From positions 3,162,001 through 3,226,000 of the forward strand of contig CDPCPM010000196.1 of NCBI GenBank assembly GCA_976551045.1: a stretch of 64,000 bases of DNA, read 5' to 3'. How positions within the stretch are numbered: position 1 is the stretch's first letter; each line of letters opens with the position of its first letter. This document shows positions 1,347-59,210 of the stretch, piece by piece. Position numbers and translations under genes: made by a program. The notes under the pieces are model-generated. The model ran no database searches, had not been told where the DNA came from, and was given only the letters and a program-made list of their open reading frames with translations. The stretch is from Glaucostegus cemiculus (Eukaryota).

Positions 1347-1628
1347 CTTATTTGTTGACAATATCAACCCTGTCCAACAGAAAGTGCAGTCTCTCTAAAT
1401 GTATCGGCCGATATCTGATATGGATGACAGTAGCTGATCTAATACACTTGATAGTCGGCGGAATTTGTGATCAAATTAAATAAGCATGCTTTCCAAATAC
1501 ATCTCTCAGTTACACACTGTTTGCAACCTTAGTCAATCTGGCCCAGATTTACTTCGTATTTGTTGCAATGTCTGGCTAACTGTAGGTTTCACTTTAATCG
1601 ATTTGTTACTATCGGTTGCCAGTCTGTA
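1347..1628 (+). pseudogene. Locus A: truncated exon 2 of a GPR139-like GPCR pseudogene (exon 1 would lie left of the window)
   Basis: After the acceptor tttttttgcag it reads (A)YLLTISTLSNRKCSLSKCIGRYLIWMTVADLIHLIVGGICDQIK*, homologous to the exon-2 starts of B-E. There is an in-frame TAA, then indels, and homology ends just after the TM3-like 'gtctggctaactgtaggtttcacttt..atcgatttgttactatc..tgccagtc'. Confidence 0.85.
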
Positions 1629-1779
1629 ATCTGTTACAGTCCTCCTGTATGGTAAAGAATATCCCAGAAAATCAGAAGGGACGTAAAGCATATCGTTTGA
1701 TTTTAAATGAAATATTTGAGGCAAAAGTATTTCCCGATTTTTACAGGAGTAAACTGAAACAAGGTGGAGGCCAGAAGCG

Positions 1780-2370
1780 AATGAGGTTTTTTTGAGGATA
1801 CAACGAGACACAGATCAGCAGAATAGCTGGGGAGATCAGTGGCAGATGTAATATGATCCAGACAAGTGTCAGGTAATTCGCTTCTGGACGTTAAATTCTG
1901 ATAGGCCATAAAGAGTAAAGGACAAGGGCTATCGTGGAGTTGATGTGCAGAGTGATGCTTGGGTGCAAGTTCAAATCTCCATGAAAGTAAAGGCACTGAG
2001 GGATAGCATAGGGAAAAGACATTCGGTAAGCTTGCCTGCGTAGACTGGTGTATTGAAAATTGGAGTCGAGACGTTATGTTGCAACTGCACTAAACATTCG
2101 TTGGACCACACGTAGAATATTGTTTTGGTCACCATAGATCGGGAAGGGTTTGATTGAAATAGAGATACAGCAGATGAGATTAATAAGGATTGTGCCTGGA
2201 ATGGGGATCTGGATTTCAAAGAAGTGATTGGATAGTCTGAGTTCATTCTCACTGGAAAGTAAGTGGATGAGGGGTTACCTGATGGAAGTTTATGAATTTA
2301 TGAGTGTGGGGCATGGATGGGATGGGTGGTCAGATGTTGTCTGATGGTAGGGAAGTATAGAGCCAGAGGA
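1780..2370 (+). mobile_element. Degenerate CR1-like LINE, 3' part of RT ORF
   Basis: Decayed CR1 ORF2 C-terminal motifs (gagacgttatgttgcaactg..., ggaccacacgtagaatattgt..., ggggttacctgatggaagtttat), similar to the better-preserved copy at 37617-38750. Confidence 0.6.
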
Positions 2371-2444
2371 CGCAGAAACAACGCCAGGGGGAAACTACAT
2401 GTTAGGATTTGAGAAGTTATTCTTTCATTTCTCACCGCCCATCC

Positions 2445-2555
2445 TGAAAAAGGGTCCTGACACGAAACCTTGACCGCTTTTCTCCACGGATGCTGCCTGG
2501 CCTGCTGAGTTCCAGCAGCATCAAAGTGTTTTCCTCTAGATTCATTCATCAGCAT
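2445..2555 (+). repeat. Penelope-like terminal repeat fragment
   Basis: gaaaagggtcctgacacgaaac...ggatgctgcctggcctgctgagttccagcagcat; this motif recurs across the window (6165-6357, 14620, 35090, 52455, 63720). Confidence 0.55.
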
Positions 2556-4587
2556 TCCTTAGTTTATCAAGTCATTCTCTTACTTGACATTGGCTACATT
2601 ATTCTTAAATAAGAGCAGAGAACGCAGGGAATAGACAACATCTCATGCAATATATTTGCAGGCGGAAACAAACGAAGAGTTTCACGATAATGTCATAACA
2701 CACGTTTTAAGAGACAGAAGGCTGTGTTGATTAAAAATTGAAGGGCAATATTAAGGTGGAGACATATAGATATTGAATGACTTCAATGGCTGTGCATGGG
2801 ATCAAGCGTTTAAGCACATCTGAACTTTCAGGGGAATTAGGCAGGTGGAGTTGAATTGTGAAAATGTAGGGAGAGTAACGAAAATAATGCTGGGCGTTAC
2901 GTAAAAGGAAATACCAACCAGATTTATCAAGAAGAGTATGTTTGAAATGCCTATAACGCCAGTCAGAACTTGTGGATACAAGAAACAGAATGAATTATTT
3001 AAGAGTTACCCAATCACCATGTCTGATTGTTTAAACAAATACCGATTCTTGGTATCAGAAATAGAACGACAGGCAGCATCTTCTCAAGAGTACCACGACG
3101 GATCTGCTTTCGGTGTTTCCATTACCGAAGACACCACATTTCTGTCATCGAATTCGTTACCATAAAGTTGAAGGAGCGTCGGATACTGCAGCTCCGTCCT
3201 GAAATATTTCACAAGTCCCTGATATTCAGCACCTTCGAAACACAGATTGGATGGTGCACTTGATGCGATTTCATGCAAACGTTCCCCACGCATCAGCATT
3301 ACTTGTGGGGAATAAAAGATTGAACGAGGGAGTTACAATGTGAGTGGTTCATTGAAACTGCTGAAAGATGAGAGGAAGGAAAATATTGTAATGGTGGCAT
3401 ACATTGAATGTGAGAGAAGTCACAGAACAGAATTTGTTTACTTGGAAGGCTGGTGGATGGAGATTGAGGACCACGTGAACCCCGATAGTTGTTACTGTCG
3501 AGTAGAACGGGTTAGTCAAAAAATGCAGAAAATTAGGAAGGCATGCTGGAGAGCCTATTCATTAGTGGTGCAGGGTAAAACATTGTTGAAGAAAAAAGTT
3601 GCTGTAAACACCATTGTGGAAAGCGTTAAAGATAGCAATTATGACGGAGAGGCGGAAAAGTGCGACGTGTAGTGAAGTTAGCTTTAGAAGTATATGCACA
3701 GGAAACCTAAAAGTGGCGAGACATGCAGAGTTCAAAGAAGAGAATAGGTAATCAGAGATGGGTAATTTGAAAGTGAGTGCAGAGTCGGAATTGGAAGGAA
3801 ATAAGCTGAAACCTCTTTAAGAACAGAAAGCAGTGCCAATACATTTATTACTCTCCTGAAATAAAATACACAAGCGAGGACGCCATAGATGTTGCGAAAC
3901 AAAGACAATTGCACACATATTACAAAGGAACATAGAACATAAATTGTCCCACACAGGTTTCAATAATTTTTCAAAGTTGCAAGAAGCTTCACAAACTGCA
4001 CAGTGATGTGGTTAAGGGAAGTGATTGTGTTACTGAGTAACGAAGAAACAAAAGTTGATCAGTGATAGCAAATAGTGGGTGTAGAGGAATTGGAAAATCA
4101 TGCTGAAAATAATCTACTTGGGTGCCTTAATTTACCTGGGAGCATAGGTGTTGTAAATGCTGTAAATTAGAAAAAAATATAGGCAACGGGAAGAAAACGA
4201 CTGAATGTAAGAACACGTAACGTCTTCTGGACAAGTAGAGGCAGAAAGATTTGCTCCACCAGAGCAATGCTACTTCTGATTACTTCTCTGTATCGAAATA
4301 TTTTGGGATCGCACATGTATCTTCGGATTCCCGTGTGTAAGTGATAGTTTGAAAGACAGTAAAATACTGCAGATTGCCCTGCTAATCAGTTGAATACAAC
4401 TTCAAACGAAACGGTTGCAAATATTCCTTAAGAGATGTTGTAAACAAATGTGTAATACATGCTCTAGCTTTCATACGCATATTCAATTTGCGGAGAATAG
4501 TTATTAAATCTGTTTCACGAAAAGTTGCATCATAACCCCGATTAATGGCAGTCACAAGTACGTGGTCGAATCAGTGTGTTCAAGGGA

Positions 4588-4650
4588 ATGAACAATTAAA
4601 ATCGCCATGTTGTGCATATTCTTCCTCTGAGGTTTCTCTAAGGTATAAAT
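4588..4650 (+). promoter_or_regulatory. Core promoter of locus B: CAATTA (TAATTG on minus strand), O/E-like TCCTCTGAGG and TATAAAT
   Basis: TATAAAT at 4644-4650 is 78 nt upstream of ATG 4722. The block aligns with the upstream regions of C, D, E and G. Confidence 0.65.
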
Positions 4651-4721
4651 AAGACCTACATTTGAAAGCAGGACATCTTCACGTCTGTTCGACGTCTATG
4701 AACCGAAGTTTCTCTCCCGGA

Positions 4722-4791
4722 ATGGGACTACCTGTAATCCTACATATAGAAAGGACTTACTATCCAATTCTTGTGGCAATTGGTGTTCCTG
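4722..4791 (+). CDS. Locus B exon 1, GPR139-like GPCR (MGLPVILHIERTYYPILVAIGVP)
   Basis: 70 nt ending cct g|gtaagt donor, same length and phase as exon 1 of C, D, E and G. An in-frame upstream ATG at 4698 is a possible alternative start. Confidence 0.85.
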
Positions 4792-6164
4792 GTAAGTCAT
4801 TTCAAAATAGCATTGCAAACCTATTTTTATGTGTCAAACTGACTGACTGAGATAACTAGTCTCTGGAAACGTTTCAATTCTCCGTCATATTCCTTGTGCA
4901 AACATCCTACTGAAACAGTCCTTTAGGATAATGTGATCCACTCGCACATTTAAACATCAGGTGCTTATGCACTGAATTAAAGATTAAAGCCACCTAAGTT
5001 GTAATAGATTTGGATGCTTCTCAAAGTGAACAAAGAATAATTTCCACTATTTATTATATGTCCAGCAGAAAGAAAGGAACTGCTTTCGTGCTGAATGGAA
5101 TTATCTGCCTTACTCTAGGCTCACTGCATTTTTTTCTCCATTCTTTCTGTGGAGCTTATCAGCTGCAGGTCGTAAAAAAAAAACATACTGATCCCATGGA
5201 CAGTTGGACCCTGACGCCGACAATAGTGCTCTGATACTGGCATTAGGGTTAAATGCGCTGCTGGGTGAAACTCGGAAAATCATGTTGCAGCTGATAAATG
5301 CATCATTGGATATTTTACCCCACACCCTGTTTATTGTCAATAGCACTTGCAACGGAAAAGTATCTGCATCTCGAGTCCTAGCAAGTATCCAAAATAATGC
5401 TGACTGTGCTTCTGATTCCGAAATGTAGATGTGTGTTATTCCCTCGAAATGGAAGAACTTGCACAAGGAGCTGCTAAACCAATTGAGGTCATTGTAAACA
5501 CCAGGAGCCTAAATACTGGCGCGCAGATAAATACGTCACTGAAATTAATGTCTTATAGGAAAATATGAGAGCTTAGATTTATCTGAGAATGTTTACAATC
5601 AAAGGAGCCTCGGATTCTCAGTTAATTGAAACCACTGTTCACAGATATTCTACTACTAACCTTAACAGTGGTTGCCTCCATTTTTTCTTCTTTTCATAAT
5701 TCCACTTAATTCAGTTCTCAAGAAATATTCCTTCAAGATATTCCTGCAGCATGTTACAGAAACATATGGGATAGTTCTCCCGTCGTTTTCAACCACTTAT
5801 CCACATTATCTCACGAACTGCTGGCGTATTTTTGGTGTTTATCCATTTTTAATGGTTAGCATGAGGCAAACTATCCATGCGAGAGGTAGTTGGAGAACTG
5901 TTAAATGCCTTGCATACCAAATTTCTGAGAAGCCAATAGCTGGCTGTGAGCTATGGAGAATCATCAGAATATCAGCTGCAAGAAATGATCATCTACTGGA
6001 TTTTTTTTTGAGATAATACAATAAACATCTTCTTAATAGCACTGAAAACTGGAGAGTGATTTTGGAGAAATTTTATTATTCAAACGAGGATAGAACGGTG
6101 ACACTTGAATAAGATGTCTGTATTAACACTGATATACGTGTACTACAGATGCTGGATATCTGGA

Positions 6165-6357
6165 CCAAAACACAAAATGCTGGGTTAACTTAGCGGGTCA
6201 GGCAGATTCTAAGGAGTTAAATTGAACGTCCACTTTTCGTGTCGAGACCCATTCATCCGGACTCGATGAAGGGTCTACACCTGAAACATCAACCGTCCAT
6301 CTACCTCCATAGATGCTACCTGACTCACTGATTTCCACCAGAACTTTGTGTTTTGTT
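6165..6357. repeat. ~190-bp imperfect palindrome formed by two inverted Penelope-like terminal repeats, in the intron of B
   Basis: caaaacacaaaatgctgg...gagacccattcatc (centre ~6260) gatgaagggtct...ccagaactttgtgttttg; the arms are approximate reverse complements. Confidence 0.7.
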
Positions 6358-6721
6358 CTGTCTTAACATTGGTGTGTCGGTACGGCTGTCAATAGTTGCT
6401 TTTTAAAGGGAACTTCCAAATAAACAATCCAGTTGCAACCCCTCCACAATGTTATTTGAGAAACAGATGAAAGCAAACACGCTGTTCTTGTGACGAAACA
6501 AATGTGTTGCAACGGCTCAGGCAAGACAGACAATCTGGCCCTTTCACAAACACTTTGACAAAGCATTCTTTAATAAGCCGTGACCAACCGATAAATTCGA
6601 AGAAAATGTAAAATCACAAGGCAAAAGTAAAGAAAGTGCTTTGACAAAGAGACGACTTATTCACTAAGTTTCCTAGAGCAATGAAAGTTTTTAATGAAAA
6701 TTCCTTTCTTTTTTTTAAAAG

Positions 6722-7632
6722 CCAATTTGATAACAATTTTCATCCTGTCCTCTGGAATGTGTGGTCTGTCAAGATGCATCATCCGATATTTAATGTGGAT
6801 GGAAGCAGCTGATCTAATGTGCTTGATTTTTGGTGCATTTCTTTATGAGATTAAGGAAGCGTATTTTCCACATACATTCCTCAATTACACGCCTGTTTGT
6901 AGTCTTGAGTTCGCCGTGTCGTACTTTTCAATTGATTGTTCTGTCTGGCTAACATTCGCTTTTACCTTTGATCGATTTATTGCTATTTGTTACCAGTCGT
7001 TAAGAACAAAATACAGCACTGCAAAAAACTCATCGCGGATTTTAACAGTGATTTGTTTGTTATGTATTGTAGAAAATATTCCAGTGTACCTCGTATTGGA
7101 ACCTGTGGAAATAATTGACAAGGTGCCGTGGTATTGTGCTATAAAATCAAGTTTCTACACCTCACCACTTTGGGTTGCATATTTCTGGTTAGAAACAATC
7201 TTGACCCCATTTCTGCCGTTTGTGCTGATTCTCCTGTTTAATACCTTGACGATAAAGCACATTATACTAACCAACAGAGTTAGGAGCAAACTTCGCGGAA
7301 TTAACAGTGAAAAGAGCCAACCTGATCAAGAGCTTGAAAACAGAAGGAAATCAATTACTTTATTGATCACGATATCCTGCAATTTTATCCTTTTGTGGAT
7401 ATTAACGTTCGGTGCTTCGTATCTGTACAGTTTACTACTCCTCAGTTGTTGGCAACAAATTACCATTGCAGAAGAACTTGTCTGCATGCTAAGATTTTTG
7501 AGTACCTGCACAAACATTTTCATTTATGCAATATCCCAGAGGAACTTCAGAGAGGAGTTGAATAATATAATTAAACGCCTGTTTTTCTCATCCTTAATGC
7601 ATTTAAATAATTTATATGGATTAGACTATTAA
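6722..7632 (+). CDS. Locus B exon 2, GPR139-like class A GPCR (joined with 4722-4791 gives 326 aa); TM6/ECL3 altered by compensating frameshifts
   Basis: Polypyrimidine tract plus aag| acceptor at 6721. The ORF has MEAADL (TM2), YTPVC, VWLTFAFTFDRFIAIC (TM3), ENIP, PWYC, WLETILTPFLPF (TM5), ENRRKSI and STCTNIFIY (TM7). Confidence 0.85.
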
Positions 7633-8028
7633 ATGGCGTATTTCTGTACAAAGTGACGTCAATTATGTGGTAGATATGAAAACAGAAACCCTCAGAAGGA
7701 GGATTTAAAATTGCGTGTAAGAGTCTTCTTCCCAAGTTGTAAGTACTGTTTTATCATTGGCAATTCATTTTATTTTAAGTAAAATACCTGAGACAAACAT
7801 GTCTGTTTATTTGAATGTGAAATGAACACGAAACTAGTTTCAGTGTAGCTCCACTTTGTTGAACTGATTGGTGAAGCTATGCGTGGTGTCGTTGAACATT
7901 CAGGTAAAAACGGAAACTATTGAGTTTCCTGGAGTGTTCACACAGGATCAATGGAGATGAGTAACAGAGTTTGCATTTCAAGTTGTTCACTGAAGTAAAA
8001 GAAAGAAAGATAGAACCCAAACTTTATT

Positions 8029-8061
8029 TGAGAGAGAGAGAGAGAGAGAGAAGGAGAGAGA
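8029..8061. repeat. (GA)n microsatellite
   Basis: gagagagagag... run seen directly. Confidence 0.9.
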
Positions 8062-8537
8062 TTTACGTGTCCGTGGTCTCAGCAGAAAAGCTATGTTGAA
8101 GCCTGTGAAGCACAGACGATGTTTGGATGCGGAAATGGAAAGAGATGGATGTGAGATGCGGAGAGAACAAAGAAAAACAACAATTTTCATCAAGGACACC
8201 TGTAGGAAATCTAAAAAAAACGAGAGTCCTTGAAGTAATCGGAAGGTCATACAGTATCACGGGTTCAATATCCAAAGTGTTGTATTCTGTCAAAATGGAA
8301 CGCCCTACCATTAGTTTTGTTTGCTGCATTGGGTAAATATTATAGGCTAGGTGCAGGGAATTTAGACTGCAATGGTGTTGGACGCAGAATTAACTGAAAT
8401 TGGAAACTCGGACTCCTTACAAAGTCTTCATCAATTGAGTTCCCGAATTTGCGTTTAGTTAATGCAATATCTAGAATGGGTTGTGACTTGAGTACCGGCA
8501 CAGTAAACTGGAAGAGGTATGAATGAATTTCTCCTTC

Positions 8538-9181: not shown

Positions 9182-10020
9182 ATGTAGTCCACTCCTCGAA
9201 AGTCACAGTACTCGCAAGCCATGGTAATATCTATTACTGAGCCGAGAACTCTGTGTCAGTGTACAGAACTAATGAAAGGCCGACGTGCTTTTGATAACCC
9301 GGCAAGCAGAGCATAATAATGACAATAAGAATAAAAACATTTTCCCAGTGAATGACAGTTGCCTACCATCCCCTCAGAGAACTAAACGACCACCAATTTC
9401 CCCATGAGGTGTCGTGCCGGAGAGGCTGGTCCCTGGTATTTTGAATTATGGCCCCCGAGTTCCGAATGCAAGCAGCCAAGTGGGCAATGTTCCTTGACTC
9501 CTCATGGATAAAGGTGCAGCAATTCTTACCAATCACTGCACAGGTACCACCATCGGCAGCGGATAGGTAATCCAGGGCCATTCTATTCTTCAGGGCGACC
9601 ATCCTGACGGCAATCAGTTCAGCTGCAGTCTGCGTCAGGGCGTCTTCCGTATGTTGCAATTCCACTGCCGTTTCGTTGTCCAGCGTCTCGATCACGTTGG
9701 CCATCTGGATGACCTCGCGGGACAGTCGGGTCGTGCCATACGTGGGAAAATCTATCATCCAAAACTTCTCGGCCTCCGTAATGGCCCTCTTGTTCTGGTG
9801 GCCGTTGTATGGTGGGTGCTCTCCAAGGTCATCTAAGGCGTGGATCTAGGGCACTACAAGTGCTGGATGGCAGCAACCATACCAGCTCCCGGGGAGCTAC
9901 GGGTATGCACGGTGGCCGCAAATCCAGTGAGTCCCATTGAAATTTCAAAGAGCTCCCAGCTTAGCGGCACCATCGTTAGTGGTCACTCGGGCACCTGAAT
10001 ACCAGTTTCAGAAATGTCCC
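9182..10020 (-). mobile_element. env: ERV env remnant (end of SU, furin site, gamma-type TM), with stop codons
   Basis: The minus strand reads NGTHWICGHRAYP*LPGSWYGCC...HQNKR|AITEAEKFWMIDFPTYG...RMVALKNRMALDYLSAADGGTCAVIGKNCCTFI. This contains an immunosuppressive domain and a CX6CC motif, followed by a hydrophobic anchor after the stop at 9363. Confidence 0.9.
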
Positions 10021-12160: not shown

Positions 12161-12199
12161 TGTTCTGAGGCATGTCTATATCATGACGGTGAGGGTGTC

Positions 12200-14090: not shown

Positions 14091-15120
14091 AAGACATACA
14101 TTTAAATGCAAGAGATCTGCACATCTGTCCCACGCACCAGAAACGTGGCCTGTCTCCGATTATGCAGTTTGCTTTAAAGTTACTGACTGAACTCATTTAC
14201 TACCATATTCTTGTCATAATTGGCGTTCCTGGTAAGCTCGTTATAGAATTTTGTAATAGAAATATTACTCTATGTTTTACTTGTTACCTATTTTCGAAAA
14301 TGCTAGAAAATGTTTCAGGTTTCTTCCAAATTGGTAATACAAATATCCAACTGGAAAAAATATTGCTCCGGACTTTGAACATTACGGCTTTAGATGAATC
14401 AGCTTCCGTATGTGAGTCGCCCTTGAAATTTATTGCATAATCATTCAAACAAATACATGACTAGATTGTTGAAATTTGCTCCCCGAAGCAGAAAATTGTG
14501 GTTTCCACGTTTCCAAAACTAACAAAAGGAAATTTTCTCTTCGCAAACGATGAATGTTCTTTGCTAATGACAGTTCGTCCCTTTCTCTATCCTTCAAACA
14601 AATCTAATCAATTCGACGCGCTGAGTCCCTCCAGCGCATTGTTTGCTGTTCCACTTCCCAGCATCTGCAGTCTCGCGTCTCCAAACCTAATAATCTGTCC
14701 CCGTACGTGAAAGAGCAGACGAATACAAAGGTCAGAAGAACGCTCATCCCGCCAACACCGGGCCACGAAGACGTTCGCCGTTTGCACTCATCCACGCAGC
14801 TGGATGGATGATTGCAAACGACATTATCGCTCATAATCCGATCAGTTTGCATTTTATTCTACTGAAAATCAGGACTACCTTTCCAAGCATCGTCTTGTCG
14901 TGCATACTCCAAGGTGGCTTTGCTGCAATCTATTTTAAAATTTCTACCTGCAGCAGGAGATAGGTGGACATCCTGTACACCATATGCCATTGCCAGCCTA
15001 ACCCATTGACTCTCGGTAACTGCAAAGGGTTCGGTTACTCTCCAGACCGACACCCTTCATGCTGAAAGTTAGAAAGTAATTTTGTCATTTCTCGATATAC
15101 AAACGAACGGCGGCATATGT

Positions 15121-17540: not shown

Positions 17541-19399
17541 GTTTTGAAGAAATGTGATTGATGAATAATCAATCAAATTAAATACACATTGTTATAAAAA
17601 TGTGATTTAGTTGCTATTCATTTCGAATTAACATATGCTTCCTGCATTTTCTCTCCGATTACAGCTAATATGGTGACAATCTCAATCCTATCATCTGGAA
17701 AATGCGGTCACTCCAAATGCATCAACCAGTATCTATTGTGGATGGCTGCAGCTAATCTAATGCATTTGATCGTTAGCGGAATACTTTATCGGATATTCGA
17801 CCAGTACTTTCCATATTCATTTCTCCATTACACTCCTGTTTGCAGTCTTAATCTTGCCTTTATTTATGTTTCTGTTGATTGCTCTGTTTGGCTAACTGTG
17901 GCACTTACCTTTGATACATATGTTGCAATTTTTCACCAGTCATTACGGACAAAATATTGTACTGAAAAAAAGTGCAAGCATCGTTATAACAGTGGTTTGT
18001 TGCACAGGTGTTTTGCAAAATATTCCAGTGTACTTCGTGTTTGAACGTCGAGAAGAAGTTAACAAAATGCCATGGTTCTGCAGAGTAAAATCAAGCTTCG
18101 ACATCTTACCGACTTGGGCTGCATTCCTCTGGTTGGAAACTATATTAACGCTATTTTTGCCATTTCAGTTGATCCTCCTGTTCAATGCGTTGCCTATAAG
18201 GCATATTATACTGGCGAACAGTGTCAGAAGAAAACTCCGAGAAAGCAACACTGAAAAGAGGCAGACAGATCAAGAGATCGAAAACAGAAGGAAATCCATA
18301 ATCTTACTACTCACAATATCTGGAAGTTTCATTTTGTTATGGGTGGTAAATTTTGCCAGCTTCATTGCTCTCTATTTTACAGATAATCAATTGATGAACT
18401 CCGAGGATGATGATACTTTCACGATTGTAGAAGAAGTTGGTTATCAGTTAAGATTTTTAACTACCTGCACAAACGCATTCATTTGCGGTGCCTCCCAAAG
18501 CTGCTTCAGAGAGGAAATGAAAAAAATGATCAAACGTCCTCTTGCCTTAATTGCAAAAATATTCAAATAGTTCGGAACAGCAAACAATCTAGTCCGGAGT
18601 AGATGTTGTTTAATTGCTGATCAGAAATTCAAACGCATTAATCCCCAAAACACGAATACATGACGGCATACCTTTTGCCAAATCTATGTGTGATCGATTA
18701 ACTGTTTTTCAATATTGTACTTGAGCTTTCCCAAATCATGCATAACGTATGAAAACATCTCTATCTGAAATATAATAGCTGAGACAATCAGCTTTGCTGA
18801 TTTTAAAAGTGGAGTTCTATAGACCAGTTTAGTTTGTTGCAGAGATTATCCAATCTGTCGGGGCGAACCTTGTTACTTTAACTATGATGGAAAAATGCGA
18901 ACACATAACTGGTTGTGGAATATTCCTTGGAACGAAAAAAATAGCAACAATGTTTTCACTCGATGACCTCTCATCATAACTTAGAATTGTTGGAAATTAA
19001 ACGTTCTTTGACAAGAGAGGAAATCCTTTGCCGATAAAAAAATGCATGAGAATGCAGTGACGAATATAAACTGAATGACATCTGTGTTTTCTGTGTTTGC
19101 CGACAGAGGGTTACAAAAAGTGCTGGTTATCATATCCGATTGCTCCGGAGAATGTGGTGACTTGTATTAGTAGACAAGGAAACAGAACGAATGTGGTGCT
19201 GCGCAATTTGAATATGAAATACGGATAAAAGTTAAACATAAAGGAGGACAATTGTATAGTCAGAATTTCGAAGCCTCCTTGAGATTCTGAGTGGAATTGT
19301 GACGATACAATCTACTTATCTCCCAGCTCATAAACTAACTGTTGAAATATCCCTTACATTATATTTCTTCCTTGATCAGATTGCATTTAGTTAGGCAAA

Positions 19400-26106: not shown

Positions 26107-26171
26107 GACTGGATAATTCAAATCTTATCTTTGTGCTCAATGCTCCCTGAGGCTTTCTCTGACATATAAAT
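26107..26171 (+). promoter_or_regulatory. Core promoter of locus D: TAATT, O/E-like TCCCTGAGG and TATAAAT
   Basis: TAATT at 26114, TCCCTGAGG at 26144 and TATAAAT at 26165, 78 nt before ATG 26243. Confidence 0.65.
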
Positions 26172-26242
26172 AATACATAACTTTGAAAGCAACTAGATTT
26201 GCATATCTGCCCACACACCAGAAACGTGGCTTCTTTACAATT

Positions 26243-26312
26243 ATGGAATTGGATGTAAAGCTACTGACTCAACTCATTTACTACCATATTCTTGTCATAA
26301 TTGGCGTTCCTG
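26243..26312 (+). CDS. Locus D exon 1, GPR139-like GPCR (MELDVKLLTQLIYYHILVIIGVP)
   Basis: 70 nt, ending in a cct g|gtaagc donor. Confidence 0.87.
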
Positions 26313-28457: not shown

Positions 28458-29383
28458 GTAATATGTTAACAATCTCGATCCTATCCTCTGGAAAATGCAG
28501 ACTCTCCAAATGTATCACTCGGTATCTTGTCTGGATGGCTGCAGCTAATCTAATGCACTTGATCGTCAGCGGAATATTTTATCGGATTTTGGACGGGTAT
28601 TTTCCACATTCATTTCTCCATTACACTCCTATTTGCAGTCTTAATTTTGCCCTTATTTATGTTTCCATTGACTTCTCTGTCTGGCTAACGGTGGCCTTTA
28701 CTTTTGATAGATTTGTCGCAATTTGTTGCCGGTCACTACGAACAAAATATTGTACTGAAAAAAGTGCAATAAGGGTTATAACAGTGGTTTGTTTCATATG
28801 CATTTTGGAAAATATTCCCATATATTTTATGTTTGAACCTCAAGAAGAAGTTAACAAAGTGCCATGGTTCTGTAAAGTAAAATCAGACTTCTACATCTTA
28901 CCTGCTTGGGCTGCGTTTTTATGGTTGGAATCCCTCTTAACACCATTTCTACCATTTCTGCTGATCCTCCTGTTCAATGCGTTGACCATAAGCAATATTA
29001 TAGTGTCTAACAGAGTCAGAAGAAAACTCCGAGAAAGCAACACTGAAAAGAGGCAGACAGATCAAGAGATCGAAAACAGAAGGAAATCCATAATCTTACT
29101 ACTCGGAATATCTGGAAGTTTCATTTTGTTATGGGTGGTAAATTTTGCCAGCTTCATTGCTCTCTATTTTACAGATAATCAATTGATGAACTTCGAGGAT
29201 AATGACATCTTCACTATTGTTGAAGAAGTTGGTTATCAGTTAAGATTTTTAAGTACTTGTACAAACGCATTCATTTATGGTGCCTCCCAAAGCTGCTTCA
29301 GAGAGGAACTGATTAATATGTTTAAACGTCCTCTTACATTAATTGAAAAATATTTAAATAGTTTGTATGGCTTTGGAACATGA
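28458..29383 (+). CDS. Locus D exon 2, intact GPR139-like class A GPCR (joined with exon 1 gives 331 aa)
   Basis: Acceptor attgcag|. Uninterrupted ORF with MAAANL, YTPIC, VWLTVAFTFDRFVAICC, ENIP, PWFC, WLESLLTPFLPF, ENRRKSI, FILLW, STCTNAFIY and helix-8 FREEL. Confidence 0.92.
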
Positions 29384-36297: not shown

Positions 36298-36361
36298 GAC
36301 TGAATAATTCCAGTCATCTTGAATGCTGCTGCCACCCTGGAGATTTCTCTGAGATATAAGT
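36298..36361 (+). promoter_or_regulatory. Core promoter of locus E: TAATT, O/E-like ACCCTGGAGA and TATAAGT
   Basis: TAATT at 36305, ACCCTGGAGA at 36334 and TATAAGT at 36355, 79 nt before ATG 36434. Confidence 0.65.
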
Positions 36362-36433
36362 AGCAAGTAAAATTGAAATCAAGAGATCGACGTGTCTGTT
36401 AAAATACAAAAAAAGCGTAGCATCCCTTCGAAT

Positions 36434-36503
36434 ATGAAACGACCTGTGATTTTGCAGACTGAAAGTATTTACTATCCTATTCTTGCAATAATTGGAATTC
36501 CGG
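36434..36503 (+). CDS. Locus E exon 1, GPR139-like GPCR (MKRPVILQTESIYYPILAIIGIP)
   Basis: 70 nt, ending in a ccg g|gtaagt donor. The link to exon 2 crosses an N gap. Confidence 0.85.
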
Positions 36504-36517
36504 GTAAGTCAGTCGCA

Positions 36518-37616: not shown

Positions 37617-38750
37617 AATATAGAATATAGATAGAACATAGATGCCTACAGCACAATTCAGGCCCTTCGTCCCACAAAGCTGTACCTGACATCTCCCCAC
37701 ACTATTAGGCATACCCATAGCTTTCTATCTTATTTACCTCCATGTACCCATCCAACATTCTCTTGAAAGACCCGAACGGATTCGCCTCCACCACCATCTC
37801 TGGCAGCCCATTCCACGCACTCACCACTCTATGAGTAAACACTTACCCCTAACATCTCCCCTATATCTTCCCCCCAGCACCTTAAACTTATGTCCTCCTG
37901 TGGCCACTATTTCAGACCTGGGGGAAAGCCTCTGACTATCTACCCTATCAATACCCCTCATCATCTTCTACACCTCAATCAGGACCCCCTCATCCTCTTC
38001 CTCTCCAAGGAGAAAAGGCCGAGTTCCCGCAAACTGCTCTCATAAGGCATGCTCCTCATTCCAGGCAGCATCCTCGTAAACCTCCTCTGCACCCGTTATA
38101 CAGCATCCACATCCTTCCTGTAGTGAGGCGACCGGAACGGAACACAATACTCCAGGTGAGGTCTGACCAGGACCTATACAACTGAAGCAACACCTCCCGA
38201 CTCCTAAATTCAATCCCTCGACCGATGAAGGACAATACACCATACGCCTTCCTAACCATAGAGTCAACCTGCGCAGCCGCCTTGAATGTCCTATGGACTC
38301 GGACCCCAAGATCCCTTTGATCCTTCACACTACCAAGAGTCTTACCATTAATTCTATATTCCTCCGACCTATTCGACCTACCAAACGGAACCACTTCACA
38401 TTTATCTGGGTTGAACTGCATCGGCCATTTCTTAGCCCAACTCTGCATCCTATCTAATTCCCTCTGTAGCCTCTGACAGCCCTACAAACTATCCACATCT
38501 CCCCCAACCTTCGAGTCGTTAGCAAACTTACTAACCCACCCCTCCACTTCCTCATCCAGGTCATTTATAAAGATGACAAACAGCAAGCGTCCCAGCACAG
38601 ATCCCTGTGGTACACCGGAGGTCACCGACCTCCACTCAGAATATGATCCTTCCACAACCACTCTTTGCCTTCTGTGGGCCAGCCAATTCTGAATCCACAC
38701 GGCAATGTCCCCCTGGATCCCGTGTCTCCTCACATTCTCCATAAGCCTGG
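37617..38750 (-). mobile_element. 5'-truncated CR1-like LINE in the intron of E
   Basis: ORFs 38482-38787 ([41 protein letters not shown]) and 38056-38448 (WPMQFNPDKCEV..RDLGVRVH), plus a (tagaa)n tail at the left end. Confidence 0.93.
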
Positions 38751-40436: not shown

Positions 40437-41356
40437 CTAATTTGGTGGCAATCAACATCCTGTCCTCTGGAAAGTGTGGTCTCTCCAGATGCATTATCCA
40501 ATATCTTATATCGATGGCAGCAGCAGACCTAATGGTGTTGGTTTTCAATATAATGCTGTACGAGATGAAAGAGGCATACTTTCCGCATTCATTCCTCAAT
40601 TACACACCTATTTGCAGTCTTCTTATTACACTAATTTATATTTCCCTCGACTGCTCTGTCTGGCTAACTGTCACTTTTACATTTGATAGATTTGTTGCTA
40701 TCTGTTGCCAGTCATTACGGACAAAATATTGTACTACTAAAGTTGCGTTGAATGTTATAGCACTGGTGTTTTTGTTAAGCATATTAGAAAATATTCCAAT
40801 ATATTTCATATTTGAACCTCGGGAAATCATTAACAATATGCCATGGTCCTGTTATGTAAAGTCAAGCTTTTACACTTTACCAACTTGGGTTGTGTTTTTG
40901 TGGTTTGAAACGATTTTAACGCCATTTACACCATTTGCTCTGATCTTGATGCTCAATTCCTTGACCATTAAGCATATTATACTGGCCAACCGAGTCAGAA
41001 GCAAGTTCCTAGGAAATAAAAGTGAGAATTGTCAGACTGATCAAGAGATTGACAATAGAAGGAAATCCATCATTTTATTGGTTGCGATATCTGGTAATTT
41101 TATTCTCTTGTGGATGATTAACCTTGCGTGCTTCATCTGTGTACAACTTACAGATACTCAGTTTCTGAAAACCGATTACAATGACCCTTTTACCATTGCA
41201 GAAAAAAGTGGTTATATGCTGAGGTGTTTGAGCACTTGTACAAACACCTTCATTTATGCGGTATCTCAGAGACACTTCAGAGCAGAATTGCAGGGTATGT
41301 TTCAACGTCCTCTGTTTCTAATTTCTCATTTCTGCAAACGTTGTTTAAATATTTAG
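40437..41356 (+). CDS. Locus E exon 2, intact GPR139-like class A GPCR (joined with exon 1 gives 329 aa)
   Basis: Acceptor gtttgcag|. ORF ANLVAINILSSGKCGLSRCII..MAAADL..YTPIC..FTFDRFVAICC..ENIP..PWSC..WFETILTPFTPF..DNRRKSI..STCTNTFIY..FRAEL. Confidence 0.92.
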
Positions 41357-41404
41357 CTGAAAAAAAACCTGCATTCAGTCAAAGGAAAAGTACACGATTC
41401 TTTT

Positions 41405-42224: not shown

Positions 42225-44790
42225 AAAGCAGAAGACGTAGGAACAGAACTGGGCCATGACGCCCATCGAATCAGCACCGCCATTCGATCATGGCTTTTTA
42301 TTTTCCCCCCTCAACACCAGTCTCCTTCCCGCAAACTTTGACACACTTACTAATCAATAACATATCAACCTCCCTCTAAATATACCCAATGACTTAGCAT
42401 CCACAGGTGTCTGTGAATTAAATGAATTCCACCGATTGACCACACGGTGGCTCAATAGATTCCTCCTTATTTCGGCTCTATAGGGACGTACTTCTCTTTT
42501 GAGCCTCTGCCTGAGGTCCTGGAATCCCAATCTGAAAGAATCATCGTCTCCACATCGGGTTTCACCAGGCCGTCCATTATTTGTTGGTTTTCAATAAGAT
42601 TCCCCGTCGCCCTTTTAACTCTAGCACGTCTAGGTCCAACAAAAGCCCCTCGTATGTTAACGATTTCTTCCCCGGGATCATTTTCCTAAACCTTCGCTGG
42701 AATCTCTCCTAGGCCAGCACATCCTTCGTTAGTTATGGAGTTCAAAACTGCTCATGACAATCTAAATGTCGTCCTGCCAATGCATTATAAAGCCAAGTAA
42801 TTCAATCGGAGAGGAGTAGAACGTAAAGCATATCTTTGTTTATGTATTCTCCTCTTTCCCAGTTGAATTCTAACACTGCATTTGCCTTCCTTACCATTCA
42901 CTCAGAATCAGAATCAGAATCAGAATCAGTTTTATTGTCACAACCATATACATACATGGTACGCATAGGAGCGAGATACCGTCCTCCACAGGAACACGTC
43001 TCATAGAAAAGAATAACATAACAACCAACAGAGAGACACATACACACTTGGCAGAATACACAGTACAAAACATTACTCATTAGTTCTTACATAAATAGAT
43101 CTTAAAGTGAACGGGCTGGTGTCAGGCATTTAAAGTGCTGGTGCATTTCTGTGCACCTAGCATCTCCTAGTGTTAACAAAGGAAGATGGAGGGATGAGAG
43201 AGTTTGCAGTTCTTATGGCTTGCGGAAAGAAGCTATTGTTCAGCCTGGACGTTCTTGCCCTGATACATTTAAGCCTCCTCCCTGATGGCAAAATTGTGAA
43301 GAGGTGGTGGGAGGGGTGAGAGGGGTCGGCCATTATGCTTTTTGTCTTCCTCACACAACGGTCTTTGTATATGTCTGCGAGGGATGGAAGCGAGACACCT
43401 ATGATCCACTCCGCAGCCTTAACTATCTTCTGGAGGGACTTCCGCCCAGCAGCTGAGCAGCTTCCAAACCAAACAGAGATACATTGAGTTAGGATGCTCT
43501 CAATGGTCCCCCTGTAGAAGGATTTCATGACTGAGGGGTGTGGGTACGCTTTCCTCAGTCTCCGCAGGAAGTAGAGGCGTTTCTGAGCCTTCTTCGTGAG
43601 GGCCGTAATGTTAGTGGACCAGGTCAGGTCGTCGGTGATGTGCACCCCCAGGAACTTGGTGCTGCGTACTTGTTCCACAGCAGACCCGTTGATGGTCAGC
43701 GGGGCGTGCACACGATGACACTCAACCTGCAAGTTAACATTTGAGGAATCATGCACTATGACTCGCAGGTCCCTTTGCACCTCCAATTTCTGAATTCGCA
43801 CCCCGTTTAGAAAACAGCCTTTGCCTTTACCCATTCTGTCAAATTTCGTTATCATATACTTCATTGCATTGCCTTTCGTCCGCCACCTCTTTGCCCATTC
43901 TCTCAAACTGTCCAAATCCATCTACAGATTCCCTGCTTTCCCCGCACTACCCACACATCCTCCTATCTTTGCATCATACGGAAACTTCATCACAAAACCA
44001 TCAATTCCATGATCCAGATCATCATCATACAACGTGAACAGTAGCCGACTCAACATGAACCTCTGAGGAAGATTATTAGTCACCTGCAGCCAAACAGAAA
44101 AGGCTCCTTTTATTCCCACTGTTTGCTTTCTTCCAGTCAGCCAATCTTCCATCCATGCCAATATTTTCCTGTAATACCATGGACCCTTATCTTGTTTAGC
44201 AGCCTCATGTGTGGCACATTGTCAAAAACCTTCTCAAACTCCAAGTGTTCAACCTTCTCTGACGCTCCTTTATCTCTTATGCTTGTTACTTCCTCTAAGA
44301 ATTCCACCAGATTTATTAGGTAATATCTCTCCTGAAGGAACTCATGCTGACTTCGACCTATGTTATTATGTGATTCCAAGTGCCCCGAAACTTCATCCTT
44401 AACGATAGACTCTAATATCTTCCGAACCACTGAAATAAAACTAATCGACCTACGACTTCCTGCCTTTTGCCTCCCTCTCTTCTTAAAGATTGGAGTGACA
44501 TTTGCGACTTTCCAGTCCTCTGTAACTAACTGAGTCTAGTGATTCTTGAAAGAGCACTGCTGATGCCTCCATAATCTCTTAAGTTTCGAATTTCAGAGAC
44601 CTGCTGTGCAGTCCATCCGTTCCAGGTGACTTATCTAACTTCAGACCTTACAGCTTTTCAAGCATGTTCTCCTTCGTAATAGAGACTACACTCACTTCTG
44701 TCCACGGACTCCACAGAATTTATGACCTGTTCTGGTGTCTTCCGCAGTGAAGACTGACGCAAAATACCAATTTAGTTCATCCTACATTCA
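42225..44790 (-). mobile_element. CR1-like LINE ORF2 remnant, interrupted by a nested Rex1/Babar element
   Basis: ORFs 44137-44430 (KILESIVKDEV..FEKVFDNVPHMRLLNKIRVHGI) and 43922-44161 (WMEDWLTGRKQTVGIKG..DDLD) are CR1 RT. The 3' part continues at 42225-42900. Confidence 0.88.
42905..43718 (-). mobile_element. Young 5'-truncated Rex1/Babar-type LINE with (TCTGAT)n tail and CACTCA target-site duplication
   Basis: Open frame HAPLTINGSAVEQVRSTKFLGVHITDDLTWS..KKAQKRLYFLRRLRK..FYRGTIESIL..DPSHPSH..PSGRR..RLNNSFFPQAIR. The tcagaa repeats are at 42902-42929 and cactca occurs at 42899-42904 and 43719-43724. Confidence 0.92.
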
Positions 44791-44813
44791 GAGAACTAAA
44801 TTGTAGGATGTCA

Positions 44814-47172: not shown

Positions 47173-48080
47173 CTAATTTGATGGAACTCATCGTCTTCAC
47201 TTCTCTAAAGTGTGGTGTCTCTCGATGCATCACAGAATATCTAATATCAATAGCAGCAGAAGCCCTAATGGAGTTAGGTTTCAAGACAATTAAGGAGGCG
47301 TATTTTCCGCATTCATTCCTCAATTACATATCTACTTGCAGTCTTCGGTTTGTACTGATTTATATTTGGTTTCATTGCTCTATCTGGCTAACTGTCACTT
47401 TTACATTTGATCTATTTATTGCTGTATGCTGCCAGTCATTACGGACAACATATTGTACAAAAAAATTGCATCGAAGGTGATCGCATTGGTGTTTTTGTTA
47501 CGGTTTTAAGAAAATAGTCCAATCGACTTCATATTTGAACCTCAGTAAATAATTGACAAAGTGCCATGGTCCTGTTCTGCAAAGTCAAGCTTTTACACCT
47601 CATTAGGTCGGGTGGTATTTTTGGTTTGAAACCATTTTAACATTATTTGCGCCATTTGCGCTGATTCTGTTGCTTAATTCCTTGACCATAAAACATATTT
47701 TACGCCTAACACAGTCAGAAGGTAGCTCCGAGGAAAGAACAGTAAGAGGAACCAGATTGACCAAGAGACTGACAACATAAGGAAATAGATTATTTTACTG
47801 GATGCAACATCTGACAGTTTTATTCTCTTATGGATGGTAAATCTTCCGTACCTCATCTGCGTACAGTTTAGAGATCGTTAATTTATGGAAACCGGTTGTA
47901 ACGACGCCTTCAGCATTGCGGGAAAAGAATTGTGGCTATATACTGAGTAGTTTGAGCACTTGTACAAACACCGTCATTTGTGCGGTATCACAGAGAAACT
48001 TCAGAGAGGAAAAAAAGAATGTGTTTCAACGTTCTCTTTTTCGCATTTCTCACTTCTTCAAACCTTGTGTGAATGTTTAG
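47173..48080 (+). pseudogene. Locus F: full-length but decayed exon 2, closest to E; no exon 1 seen
   Basis: Acceptor gttgcag|ctaatttg. Lesions include a 12-nt deletion in TM2, DRF to DLF, a -1 frameshift at the A-run 47459-47465, and several stops (e.g. cctcagtaa ~47546, aggtag ~47725). The intron end and 3' flank align to E. Confidence 0.9.
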
Positions 48081-55455: not shown

Positions 55456-55587
55456 ACTGAATCATTCCAGCCATCTTGCCTGCTGATTCTACCATGGGGA
55501 TTTCTGTGAGATAGAAATAGCAGCTTAATGTGATATCAAAAGATCCGTGTTGCTGTTCAACTATCTGGAAACGTTGTTTCCCTTTCT
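55456..55587 (+). promoter_or_regulatory. Orphaned promoter/5' UTR of locus G with degenerate TATA (TAGAAAT)
   Basis: gactgaatcattccagccatcttg...accatggggatttctgtgagatagaaatagc aligns to the E promoter at 36298-36430. Confidence 0.7.
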
Positions 55588-56355
55588 TGTGGTTTTCCGA
55601 GATTCAGTTGACCAGGAGACACAGAACATTCTTCAAGAATTTAAACTTTTATTTGCAAACAAAAGTTGTGACCGTCAAAGAAAACAGATACTGAGCACGC
55701 TCAGACTGCCCTCAGACTGCTTCCGAGCATGGCTCACGGGGCTTTTTTATACCTTTTTCATTGCTCAATTACATTATCCCAATCAATCATTTTCCCTCTT
55801 ATCTTCACAGTTCTCATCCTTCAAACATTTGTATCCCGTGCAGCTGGTTTTCTGTCTCAGTCATTGGGAGCCCCAGTTATCTATGGGCCTTGAGCGCATG
55901 GTACTAGGTTTATTAGTTTGCAACATAAAACAATAAAAAAATGCTATTGCTACATGTTATTAGTTATCAAGTTATGCCACTATCACCCATGAGCTCTAAA
56001 ACTTCACTAGCACCTGGCAAAACCATTAGCTACAAGAAACTATTGTCAAAGCATTCGTCGCGCTTCGCAATAAAGACCATTTGCTGCAGAATGTGCCCAC
56101 AGTGTCTTCCTAGGAATGTGTTGATCATCTATTTAATGAAGTTGACAAAAGGCCAAATGTTATACTTTCCTCCTTAAGATCTGTTGGCCATTTGTTTAAT
56201 AAGCTGCATATTTCCGCACCGTGTTTCCAGCGCTAGGGCTGAAGAAGAACAGCAGCCATCTTAGGAGGACCAGCGGCCATCTTAGACACGTAACAAATAA
56301 TGAATAAACACGAGTACAGCCTCCATTTTCTAATTTAAATATTCTATACCTTACA
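55588..56355 (-). mobile_element. Solo LTR (768 bp), antisense, inserted just before the start codon of G
   Basis: The minus strand starts TGTAAGG and ends ACCACA. A minus-strand TATAAAA (plus ttttata ~55745) and AATAAA (plus tttatt ~55648) occur in U3-R-U5 order. No clean TSD is visible. Confidence 0.75.
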
Positions 56356-56357
56356 TT

Positions 56358-59210
56358 TTGGAACAGCCTGTAATCCTGCAGAGGGAAAGTATTTATCATC
56401 CTCTTCTTGTAACAGTTGGAGTTCCAGATAAGACACCCAAAGAATGGCATTGCAATTACATGTTGATGTGCTTTCCTCGCCGGCATGAATACACCACAGC
56501 CAAACTATGTGAAAATGATTTGTTTTATTTCACGTTATTAACGCAAACACCTCACTGATATAAAATTTTTAAATAAGTCTGAATGGTTTTCTTCAATGAT
56601 GTACCTGAATGGCAATATTTTGAAGGCATAATTTGCACACGACTTTAAGCAATGAAGCTAATAATATTAGAACTCGTCTCAGGAGGGAAAATATACATTT
56701 GTTTCATTCCACACAGCCCACTGAAAGACGCCCTTCCACTTGATCGAAAACAGGCTGCTTCAGCCATGGCAGAATGCATGGTTCAAAGACAGTTCTCTTG
56801 TAAAATGCAAAGGTTCCTGATTTTCCGTTTTGATTCTACGCACCAGATTTTCCAAGAGATTCGGGACACAAAGGAACAATAAATTACGATGCCATACAGT
56901 CTAGGTTACTTGGCGCCAAAGATCATTTAAAAAAATCAAATTTAGAATTCATTGTCGAAACAAAAAAGATGTAAAGTCGTTTTCACGGATGCTATCCGGA
57001 TCACCGACCAAAATGTGCGGACGATACAGCCGAATCCATCACAATATATGCAAGCGGCAGTCTCCTTCTGACCGAAAAATTGTCTGTCAGTAGTACCGAA
57101 TGGAATGCGTGGTTTATTTTAATGCTTGGTACATTTGGCATTAAGCGCGCAGTGAAAGTCAAAATATTCTCTTGGCAATGACTTGTACCTATTCGTTGAT
57201 GAACCACGATTTATTTTTCAGAATAATTCTTAATTTTAGTCTTTTTTAAAGATGTGAAATGTTTTATGCAACAAAAGACATGAAAATATGACGTTGGAAT
57301 TAGCCAATGAGCAAGACTTCCTGAGATTTATAGCACTTACGTATCCAAAAAATTGAATTTGTAATTTTGCCAGATATTTAGGAGAAAGTTAGCGCTATTG
57401 TTCCCCATCGTTTTTTGGAGGGCTGATGATTTACATGTCGTGGATGTGTTGAGCCACAAACGTTTTAGAAGGTGGGCAGGGCGGAGAGACAGGGTTGCCA
57501 GAGATACCGCTGTTTGAGTCGACATATTTAAAGATATGGCTTGGAAGAAATCCGAAGTGTATCAGGAAATGGAAAGACATTGAGCCTAAACACAGCGAAA
57601 GGAACCGATGTTTCTATACGCATGATGTTGCATATCATTCAGTTTTCGCGTTGACGCGGTAGCTGGTCTTGCTCAGCTTATGGCTCCACCTATTTTCTAA
57701 CCAGCATATTACATTTACAGCAGCCAGTGCTCGATACATTTTATTATGTTACATTATTATTTTGAAGATGCATGTGTACTTACACTCTATGTTGATTGTA
57801 AGACGGAATGGACAGCTCTTCTTATAGCAAAAGGCCACCGCTATTTTCCGAAGCAGGATGTTAGACCTCCCTTCCTGAGGTTTAGTTTTCCACGTGCTTT
57901 CACTTCGCTTTGTACAATGGCCGATGAAATCATGCATTCAAAACATTGTTACCGGCATTTCTTCAGCAGGGAACGAGGACGCAGCAGTTAGCGTCGCGCA
58001 TAAGGGGTATACACTTGGTACGTCCTGATTCAGTTTGATTTGAGCCATTAACTCATTGAAATTTTGTGACCATGGACATCGATCGTGCTGGGCAGCGATG
58101 ATTGATCTGGATCCAACAGTCTATTTTCCACTGTTGACAATATTCCAACATTTCAAAACACCCGCCCTTCTACGTTGAAAGCGGAATTATCAGGGGAGCT
58201 TAAGGTATGATGGCAGAATTGCCTACAGTTTATCTCCCTGTTCATTGGTGCAATGACCTGTTGAAGAGTACGCATGAACATAATTAGCATCGGGTTATCA
58301 AATTTATTCCGGAGTAACAGTCATCGAAATGTCAAAAGCGTCATTTCAAAAGTGATAGTAGACCCGGCAGGGGAAGGAAAAGTTTATATTTTCATTTTCA
58401 GGAAATTTTCATTATTTGTCAGGAAGTTCATATTTTTTAAGTAAACTGATTTATTTGGAGATGGCCATACTCTATCTGTGGACTTAGAAAACACATTGGA
58501 TTAGTTTTTGCTTGCCTACGGCCACCAGAGATATTGAAAAGCAATGGTAAAAGTCGAACAACATCGAGTTGCCAAAGGTTGTTGGACTTACAAGAAGGAT
58601 GGGCTGAGAATATACCCCGTGATACCGATTCGTCATGTGCATTAATCCAGTCTGCAGTTTCTCCATTGGACGTGGAAAATCTACTGCTGGCCCACCAACT
58701 CGGATTTGTCGGCGTGGACGTGCTGTCCATGGGACGTGATACTGGAGAGCGTACGATCTTCAAATGCAAACGTTCTCATTACTAAAGCAAAGCAAATTAT
58801 AGCAACTGTAGAGATAACCAAAAATTAGACAATATTTCATAGACAGGATATTTTAACGCAAATTGCACCGCCATTTCAAAAGAATCCTCTGGGTCCAATT
58901 AGAATAAGTGAAGCACGTTTTCATAATCATTGTTTTCTAATTCTAAAGTTAATTCCGAAGTATTATCAGAAAAAAAAGTGTATATAAACAACAAATCGCA
59001 AGAAAGGGGAGGTCTATTTCACTGGTTATTTTTCGTTTTTGATATCATTTCCTCTTTCCACGTTTGTAGCAAATTTGGTCGCAAATTTTATCCTTTCCTC
59101 AGGAGAGTGAGGTCTCTCTACATACGTAATTCAATATTTTATATCAATGGCAGCAGCAGATCTCATGGTGCGGTTTTTAAATATAATTTTGCATGTTTTT
59201 AAGGAGGCTA
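56358..59210 (+). pseudogene. Locus G: GPR139-like pseudogene (exon 1 56358-56427; exon 2 fragment 59070-59210)
   Basis: Exon 1 reads (TTG)EQPVILQRESIYHPLLVTVGVP g|ATaag, so both the start codon and the GT donor are lost. Exon 2 after tttgtag| reads ANLVANFILSSGE*GLSTYVIQYFISMAAADLMV..FKEA and is then truncated. Confidence 0.88.

Follow-up and report, generated by a model that had tools for sequence, protein, structure and literature searches.

What kind of receptors are encoded by a row of closely related genes in the genome of Glaucostegus cemiculus, and what might so many copies of them be for? The 64,000-nucleotide stretch analyzed here, hereafter the window, spans G000:C196:3,162,001-3,226,000 (C196, C1, C24 and similar names are contig labels of the G. 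cemiculus assembly), and tblastn finds in it exactly seven class A G protein-coupled receptor (GPCR) copies, A to G, all on the plus strand. A sequence-only reading of this DNA had proposed an array of GPR139-like orphan receptors undergoing birth-and-death evolution, a lineage-specific expansion distinct from true GPR139 that may sense amino acids or peptides. We find that the copies belong to a class A (rhodopsin-like) GPCR family that is an elasmobranch radiation separate from GPR139, and the window array would be one segment of a multi-megabase cluster of this shark-and-ray family. As to function, we give a probability of about one half to the family being a chemosensory repertoire whose ligands are probably peptides or amines, a proposal that rests on its size, architecture and selection pattern.

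The family is very large. A 29-letter pattern from transmembrane helix 3 (TM3) has 5,365 matches in the assembly and an independent TM7 pattern has 5,692, with none in the control for either, while RAG1 and GPR139 have one match each. A pattern built on the exon-1 donor, which fits only some subfamilies, has 1,734 matches (control, 5). Many copies had been expected genome-wide, and these numbers lie three orders of magnitude above a mere few. In the first 5.5 Mb of C1, 100 TM3 and 92 TM7 matches have 50 in common, giving a union of 142; extrapolated from the overlap on this one contig alone, the genome-wide union is ~8,400. Each of the 61 motif matches sampled from that stretch of C1 proved to be an exon 2 of the family, intact in 24 cases (7/21, 8/20 and 9/20), so that about 60% of sampled copies are broken. 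Rare-variant matches on 19 contigs, which do not form an independent sample, were intact in 16 of 26 cases. The broken class includes L045 and L053, first scored as intact, whose frames end within TM7. Multiplying an intact share of 0.28-0.52 (95% interval) by 5,692-8,400 gives, by hand calculation, an estimated ~1,600-4,400 intact copies, counted on exon 2 only; a search of the nearest 6 kb recovered no exon 1 for the majority of L034-type and L042-type genes on C1. Near-identical sets cut the number of distinct sequences ~1.8-1.9-fold (26 to 14; 69 to 37 at 99% identity; 137 to 78), leaving an estimate of roughly 850-2,300 distinct intact exon-2 sequences after merging, and some of the duplicates may be assembly artefacts. 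Among the matches listed, family members lie on more than 80 contigs. By comparison, the ten cartilaginous fishes covered by Policarpo et al. (PMC10869828) have 20-62 complete olfactory receptor (OR) genes, and the highest number of complete ORs given there is 2,399.

Copies are concentrated around the window and are shared between contigs. A genome search with copy E returned 129 matches, 95 of them on C196 between 1.45 and 5.57 Mb, and a further family copy lies on C196 at 1.10 Mb. The 264 kb of continuous sequence around the window contain 21 copies away from the edge, 11 of them with an intact exon 2. Copies occur in sets of two to eight at 99.1-100% identity, flanks included, and three loci are identical over 3.9 kb. 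Copy E is present six times on five contigs at 99.1-99.9% identity, again with its flanks; one of the six, that on C24, is frameshifted, and the C129 copy of D has a 2-nt deletion, indicating that loss follows soon after gain. A block of E with four or five neighbors is found at 98-99% identity on C24, C65, C129 and C647, and the first three of these contigs also carry genes of other subfamilies. On C196, ~2.09-2.91 Mb and 3.06-3.88 Mb form a tandem duplicate of ~0.8-1 Mb that holds the whole window and is 99.4-99.9% identical where compared; either the duplication happened very recently or the assembly has placed two haplotypes one after the other. Uniform redundancy of the assembly was rejected given that RAG1 and GPR139 are single-copy. 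Local false duplication may be present, above all at the ~1-Mb duplicate and the three loci identical over 3.9 kb. Blocks of tens to hundreds of kilobases are copied by segmental duplication, the compact promoter traveling with each gene. Carriage by a transposon found no support, as the 60 of 142 long intergenic frames scanned are mixed remnants of long interspersed nuclear elements (LINEs) and long terminal repeat (LTR) elements; all Pfam matches were to retroelement-type domains, and no immune genes were among these frames.

Relatives of these genes are found in many sharks and rays. Copy E matches 1,473 protein clusters (90% identity) and a C1 gene matches 2,530. Among the best 120 clusters listed per query, all named ones are from sharks or rays and all are automatically named; no chimaera is among them, no search having been aimed at chimaeras. 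The family proteins are already in public catalogues under wrong automatic names, with RefSeq and UniRef models called 'probable G-protein coupled receptor 139', 'sex peptide receptor-like' or 'neuropeptides capa receptor-like'. The nearest outside relatives in a representative protein search are an amphibian and sturgeon orphan, two other fish orphans and amphioxus receptors. In two trees (85 and 34 rows of sequences other than GPR142, ORs and TAARs, rooted on two invertebrate-type receptors), the elasmobranch genes are monophyletic (support 93; 92/84), the amphibian-sturgeon orphan is their sister group (support 99; 100/99) and GPR139 falls far outside, on a long branch whose exact place is unsure. 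The approximately unbiased (AU) test rejects a clade of the family and GPR139 (p 0.0019), and true GPR139 is a separate single-copy gene on C73. The sequence-only reading was therefore right to separate a lineage-specific birth-and-death family from true GPR139. Subfamilies contain sharks and rays mixed, and therefore the radiation began before the shark/ray split; the closest named relatives of the genes in this genome are mostly from rays. The expansion is thus not limited to one species.

The sister orphan (for example XP_069092602.1 from Pleurodeles, automatically named 'probable GPR139') shares a TM6 stretch, 'DPEM-RRRSI', with the family. Unlike the family, this orphan (the P0232 clade) forms one 90% cluster per species, and its members are 66-74% identical among amphibians and 32-33% identical to the shark and ray genes. 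It may belong to the GPR210 orphans described by Rinne et al. 2019 (PMC6504862). As a conserved single-copy gene misnamed GPR139, it provides a simple handle on the ancestral function of the family.

Across 78 intact genes, N1.50 (77/78), D2.50 (76/78), the D-R of DRF (78/78), W6.48 (78/78), N7.49 (77/78) and Y7.53 (78/78) are near-invariant, as is C3.25; D3.37 is present in 70/78, and P6.50 and P7.50 are absent from all. Pfam 7tm_1 (PF00001) is above cut-off for copies B, D and E, the three long frames tested. A structural model of P0003, a relative 70% identical to E, has a mean predicted local distance difference test (pLDDT) score of 88 and seven long helices, with a beta-hairpin predicted in extracellular loop 2 (ECL2). 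The short N-terminus noted from the sequence is borne out, since exon 1 encodes 23 residues and helix 1 of the model begins at residue 5. The best fold match of the model is GPR139, followed by peptide and chemokine receptors, with similar and unremarkable scores. Divergence of the extracellular-facing segments had also been claimed, and this is clear for the membrane helices of B, D and E (51-54% identity in the outer TM halves versus 68-70% in the inner halves) but less so for their loops, where the ranges touch (ECLs 55-67%; intracellular loops, ICLs, 67-69%).

GPR139 and GPR142 are class A orphans activated by L-Trp and L-Phe. By sequence, too, GPR139 is the best PDB match of the family (E 1.8e-6), exon 2 starts at the TM1 'AN' position in both, and both have an altered NPxxY motif with no P7.50. 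The differences are that GPR139 is single-copy here and outside the family clade, that identity between them is 24%, and that the family keeps C3.25 and the ECL2 cysteine and lacks P6.50 and R6.51. Activation of GPR139 by Trp or Phe needs F3x33, H5x43, W6x48 and N7x38 (PMC5430874). With equivalence set by alignment to the GPR139 of this genome, two of these four are kept in the family (3.33 is F or Y in 57/78, and W6.48) and two are replaced (H5x43 by E or D in 61/78, N7x38 by Y or F in 66/78). Therefore the amino-acid ligand that the sequence-only reading had carried over from GPR139 is not supported.

In genome terms the family resembles the OR, TAAR, V1R and T2R families, with large clusters, compact genes, a short N-terminus, many pseudogenes, a pocket that is variable in some clades and a promoter with a TATA box and a putative O/E-like element. 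It differs from them by an intron in the coding region; moreover, 7tm_1 is the only domain matched at E<=0.001 by B, D and E, and the nearest relatives in the tree are GPR139-related orphans, so that membership in any of the four was rejected. The MRGPR and formyl peptide receptor expansions are also lineage-specific, class A and peptide-detecting, with selection on the extracellular face and expression in sensory neurons and immune cells, but they belong to an unrelated branch and comprise tens of genes rather than thousands. Tan et al. 2021 (PMC8455134) report that cartilaginous fishes lack MAS1 relatives.

Selection was assessed with a codon mixture model of our own. In the clade of the window, represented by 50 intact genes chosen by likeness to E, omega (dN/dS) is 0.29, with 0.34 at extracellular and 0.25 at intracellular codons, and there is no positively selected class (twice the log-likelihood difference, 2dL, of 1.2). 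A mixed set of 28 genes from other clades gave a 2dL of 127, with 28/28 selected sites extracellular. For a young subfamily, represented by the 37 genes left when sequences 99% identical were merged (gap-free alignment), the 2dL was 454, compared with 0-0.7 in six null simulations, a value that may be somewhat high, as the best synonymous scale of the null lay at the edge of the grid. Here 37/43 selected sites are extracellular, including pocket positions 3.29, 3.32, 3.33, 4.60, 6.51, 7.32, 7.36 and 7.39. Tree-free pairwise estimates for this subfamily agree, with dN of 0.124 outside versus 0.017 inside and dN/dS of 1.17 versus 0.26. The diversifying pocket envisaged by the sequence-only reading is therefore a property of other clades and not of the window's own, which comes close to the strong purifying selection that had been named as evidence against it. 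We conclude that some receptors of the family are pushed toward new specificities and that the window genes are its conservative arm. This arm seems to be older and conserved, with a ligand class that has stayed stable, whereas the arm that diversifies lies on other contigs. The family gains copies by duplication and loses them by frameshift, about six in ten decaying; the G-protein face is under purifying selection, and the pocket diversifies in some subfamilies.

In copies B-E the ATG is preceded, at a distance of 78-80 nt, by a TATA-like box, and such a box was called in 39/45 non-redundant upstream regions; the promoter counts exclude the 6/45 without a call, some of which are false exon-1 matches, and two with misplaced calls. 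A conserved element ~21 nt above the TATA box, first noticed in 25 promoters, resembles TCCCNNGGGA, which we take to be the EBF/Olf-1 site consensus. The motifs considered here are loose matches to consensus sequences, with up to two mismatches, and an NF-kB-like match overlaps the EBF-like one. An EBF/Olf-1-like site is found 19-27 nt above the TATA box in 10/31 C196-type and 5/6 other-type promoters against a background of ~1%; of the 20 motifs compared, no other shares its position between the two subfamily types. Thirteen of 17 held-out promoters have at least five of eight matches to the EBF consensus, as do 5% of control windows. A homeodomain-like site is weak (7/31). Sites for O/E and homeodomain factors as well as TATA boxes show enrichment in mouse OR promoters (PMC3247239; PMC5608512).

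If the family has a chemosensory function, only a few scattered sensory cells would express any given intact gene, with one receptor per cell, and the intact receptors would bind water-borne peptides or amines in a pocket differing from copy to copy. The acids D3.37, E4.56, E5.42 and E7.35, which are kept in the window's clade, together with the peptide-receptor ancestry suggest that the ligands may be cationic peptides or amines. More tentatively, vertebrates might have in it a seventh family of chemoreceptors, one that evolved independently out of an orphan peptide receptor, whose expanded form is confined to cartilaginous fishes and whose repertoire in this genome rivals or exceeds the largest OR repertoires on record (~2,400 complete genes). 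The spliced exon 1 start is found in 0/12 inspected proteins, which has no bearing on transcription.

A number of results weigh against a chemosensory role. The window's clade shows no sign of positive selection, and variability at its pocket positions does not exceed that of the remaining outer-TM positions. Extracellular codons have a raised dS (0.106 versus 0.064), a hint of gene conversion, which can inflate site tests, and omega values of 5-12 are equally typical of host-pathogen conflict and of smell. Among the held-out promoters only 3/17 reach at least six of eight EBF-consensus matches. In the window's clade the overlapping NF-kB-like match is found in 18/31 promoters compared with 10/31 for the EBF-like site, a C/EBP-like site lies further up in 7/31 C196-type promoters, and in the young subfamily the EBF-like site likewise has an NF-kB-like neighbor. 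Because the promoters are homologous, p-values overstate their independence, and EBF acts in B cells too. Given that NF-kB-like and C/EBP-like sites fit alongside the EBF-like site, the promoter does not decide between neurons and immune cells. Finally, all olfactory neurons of the catshark nose are described as TRPC2-positive, Go-positive and microvillous, with robust V2R expression (PMC10116579), so that receptors for amino acids are already on offer there, which argues against a role in the main nose.

The same promoter matches invite a different explanation, namely that the receptors could be innate immune sensors on granulocytes, B cells or barrier epithelia that detect microbial or parasite peptides in the manner of formyl peptide receptors and MRGPRX2-type receptors, with the pocket in an arms race. 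The NF-kB-like and C/EBP-like sites stand at fixed distances above the TATA box, omega in ECL2 and the pocket is very high, and peptide and chemokine receptors are the nearest folds after GPR139. Set against this are the looseness of the motifs and their overlap with the EBF-like site, the lack of immune genes among the intergenic frames scanned, and the size of the family, as we know of no immune class A GPCR family so large; we regard an immune role as rather unlikely, yet as the strongest of the alternatives. It is less probable still that genomic drift accounts for most of what we see, with a modest functional core, most copies being passengers in unstable segmental duplications, and part of the count reflecting assembly redundancy. 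The near-identical copy sets with their flanks, the duplication of the whole window ~975 kb away at 99.4-99.9%, the high share of broken copies and the collapse of 69 intact genes to 37 at 99% would all be expected under drift. Nevertheless, the six E copies are all different and so cannot be two alleles, RAG1 and GPR139 are single, and 2,530 public protein clusters remain at 90% identity. In addition, dN/dS in recently diverged copies (0.26 intracellular versus 1.17 extracellular) indicates selection on many young copies.

The two remaining explanations start from the ancestry of the family. Species- or individual-specific peptides could be detected in reproductive or social signaling (sperm, oviducal gland or pheromone detection), and the ligand face does evolve fast; the wider clade is described as including invertebrate sex-peptide/MIP and FMRFamide receptors (PMC12208981). 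No sequence feature points to gonads, however, and the ancestry is shared with the brain receptor GPR139 and is too distant to carry function, which makes this explanation improbable. That the genes are true GPR139 paralogues sensing L-Trp or L-Phe, as the database names imply, would agree with the best solved-structure match and the fold, and with the aromatic residue at 3.33 and W6.48. It is very hard to reconcile with the separate GPR139 on C73, the AU test, the replacement of H5x43 and N7x38 and the 24% identity, and we give it almost no credence. A chemosensory repertoire is accordingly the function that we favor, at the probability given above.

The gene models of the window agree with the sequence-only reading in that there are seven same-strand paralogues with a shared two-exon layout where complete, D (331 aa) and E (329 aa) being intact, A, C, F and G broken, and B rescued by indels that offset each other. 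In this layout, 70 nt of coding sequence form exon 1, a GT-AG intron in phase 1, 1.9-3.9 kb long in the complete window copies, interrupts the middle of TM1, and exon 2 measures ~0.9 kb. Copy A (1347..1628; plus strand, as are all copies and their promoter elements) is a truncated exon-2 pseudogene covering TM1-TM3, with indels and a stop. Copy B has a TATA-like box (4644..4651) 78 nt before the ATG, a coding exon 1 (4722..4791), with a second in-frame ATG at 4698, and an exon 2 (6722..7632) whose frame is open (326 aa with exon 1). In it, a -1 deletion near 7401 and a -14 deletion near 7460 restore the frame and alter the TM6-ECL3 stretch, and the function of B is doubtful. Copy C has a coding exon 1 (14162..14231) and a pseudogene exon 2 (17665..18570) with a +1 frameshift in an A7 run near 17964. 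Copy D comprises a TATA box (26165..26172), a coding exon 1 (26243..26312) and an intact exon 2 (28458..29383) with N at 2.50. In copy E, a promoter element (36334..36349) fitting both an EBF/Olf-1-like and an overlapping NF-kB-like consensus motif lies ~21 nt above a TATA-like box (36355..36362), which is 79 nt before the ATG; coding exon 1 (36434..36503) and an intact exon 2 (40437..41356) follow. Copy F (47173..48080) is a full-length exon-2 pseudogene with five indels and is nearest to E. Copy G consists of an exon-1 remnant (56358..56427), with TTG for ATG and AT for the GT donor, and an exon-2 stub (59070..59213) that ends after TM2. Exon 1 of copies A and F was searched for and not found.

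Copies A, B, C, F and G carry their lesions in the duplicate block ~975 kb upstream on the same contig as well, so that read errors are an unlikely cause; the duplicate of copy C is 13 substitutions apart and has an identical A7 run. Copy C is an older tandem duplicate of copy D. Identity is 70-74% between the 9-kb block that surrounds C and the one that surrounds D, and 76% between F and E; therefore, the array was built by local tandem duplication. In D and the broken C, N replaces the near-invariant D2.50 in TM2, the class A sodium site, and only 2/78 intact genes lack D2.50. Between B and C lies a retroviral envelope gene fragment (Pfam TLV_coat, E 2.8e-7; window 9366-9845, minus strand). 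By eye, LINE reverse-transcriptase-like remnants are also recognizable on the minus strand, as stop-free frames at 38059-38841, 43160-44535, 58440-58775 and 59875-60378; a part of one (43160-43921), the only LINE-like frame scanned, has a short ALKBH8_N Pfam match. Elsewhere, at G000:C412 540-600 kb, a number of long frames without stops (L143, L144, L146 and L148), the longest of 463 codons, have no Pfam match; they lie in a 60-kb gap between receptor genes and are possibly GC-rich repeats. Both ends of C196 (L282 and L288-L291) have a GC content of 51-59%, many open frames and no receptor copies, whereas the GC content of the cluster is 40%.

Literature searches found, among the records listed, no paper treating the family, subscription papers and several supplements being outside reach. 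Term searches of the main text found no description of it in PMC12294341, PMC11979771, PMC6504862, 10.1101/2022.10.17.512540, PMC12208981, 10.64898/2026.10.27.761883, 10.1101/2025.06.08.657570 or PMC8455134, nor is it mentioned in 12 of the 24 supplementary files of PMC8455134 or in the readable files of PMC10115646. Tandem clusters of two batoids are the subject of a survey in the Squalomix preprint, and its figure 5A and supplements may list the family. The family, then, is real and, as far as searched, undescribed.

GPCRs have been described as relatively few in cartilaginous fishes (PMC8455134), and the pairing of large noses with a small receptor repertoire has been put down to a trade-off between sensitivity and discrimination, in favor of the former (PMC10116579). 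The statement of paucity is contradicted, whatever the function, by a GPCR family that numbers thousands of copies and has a pocket under positive selection. Tissue RNA data that already exist for sharks and skates allow a direct test of function. Expression in leukocytes would reveal an immune GPCR repertoire of a size unmatched to our knowledge, whereas expression in sensory cells would reveal a new class of chemoreceptor. If the family is indeed the seventh chemoreceptor family of vertebrates, the idea that a few dozen receptors serve the chemical senses of sharks and rays would have to be given up.

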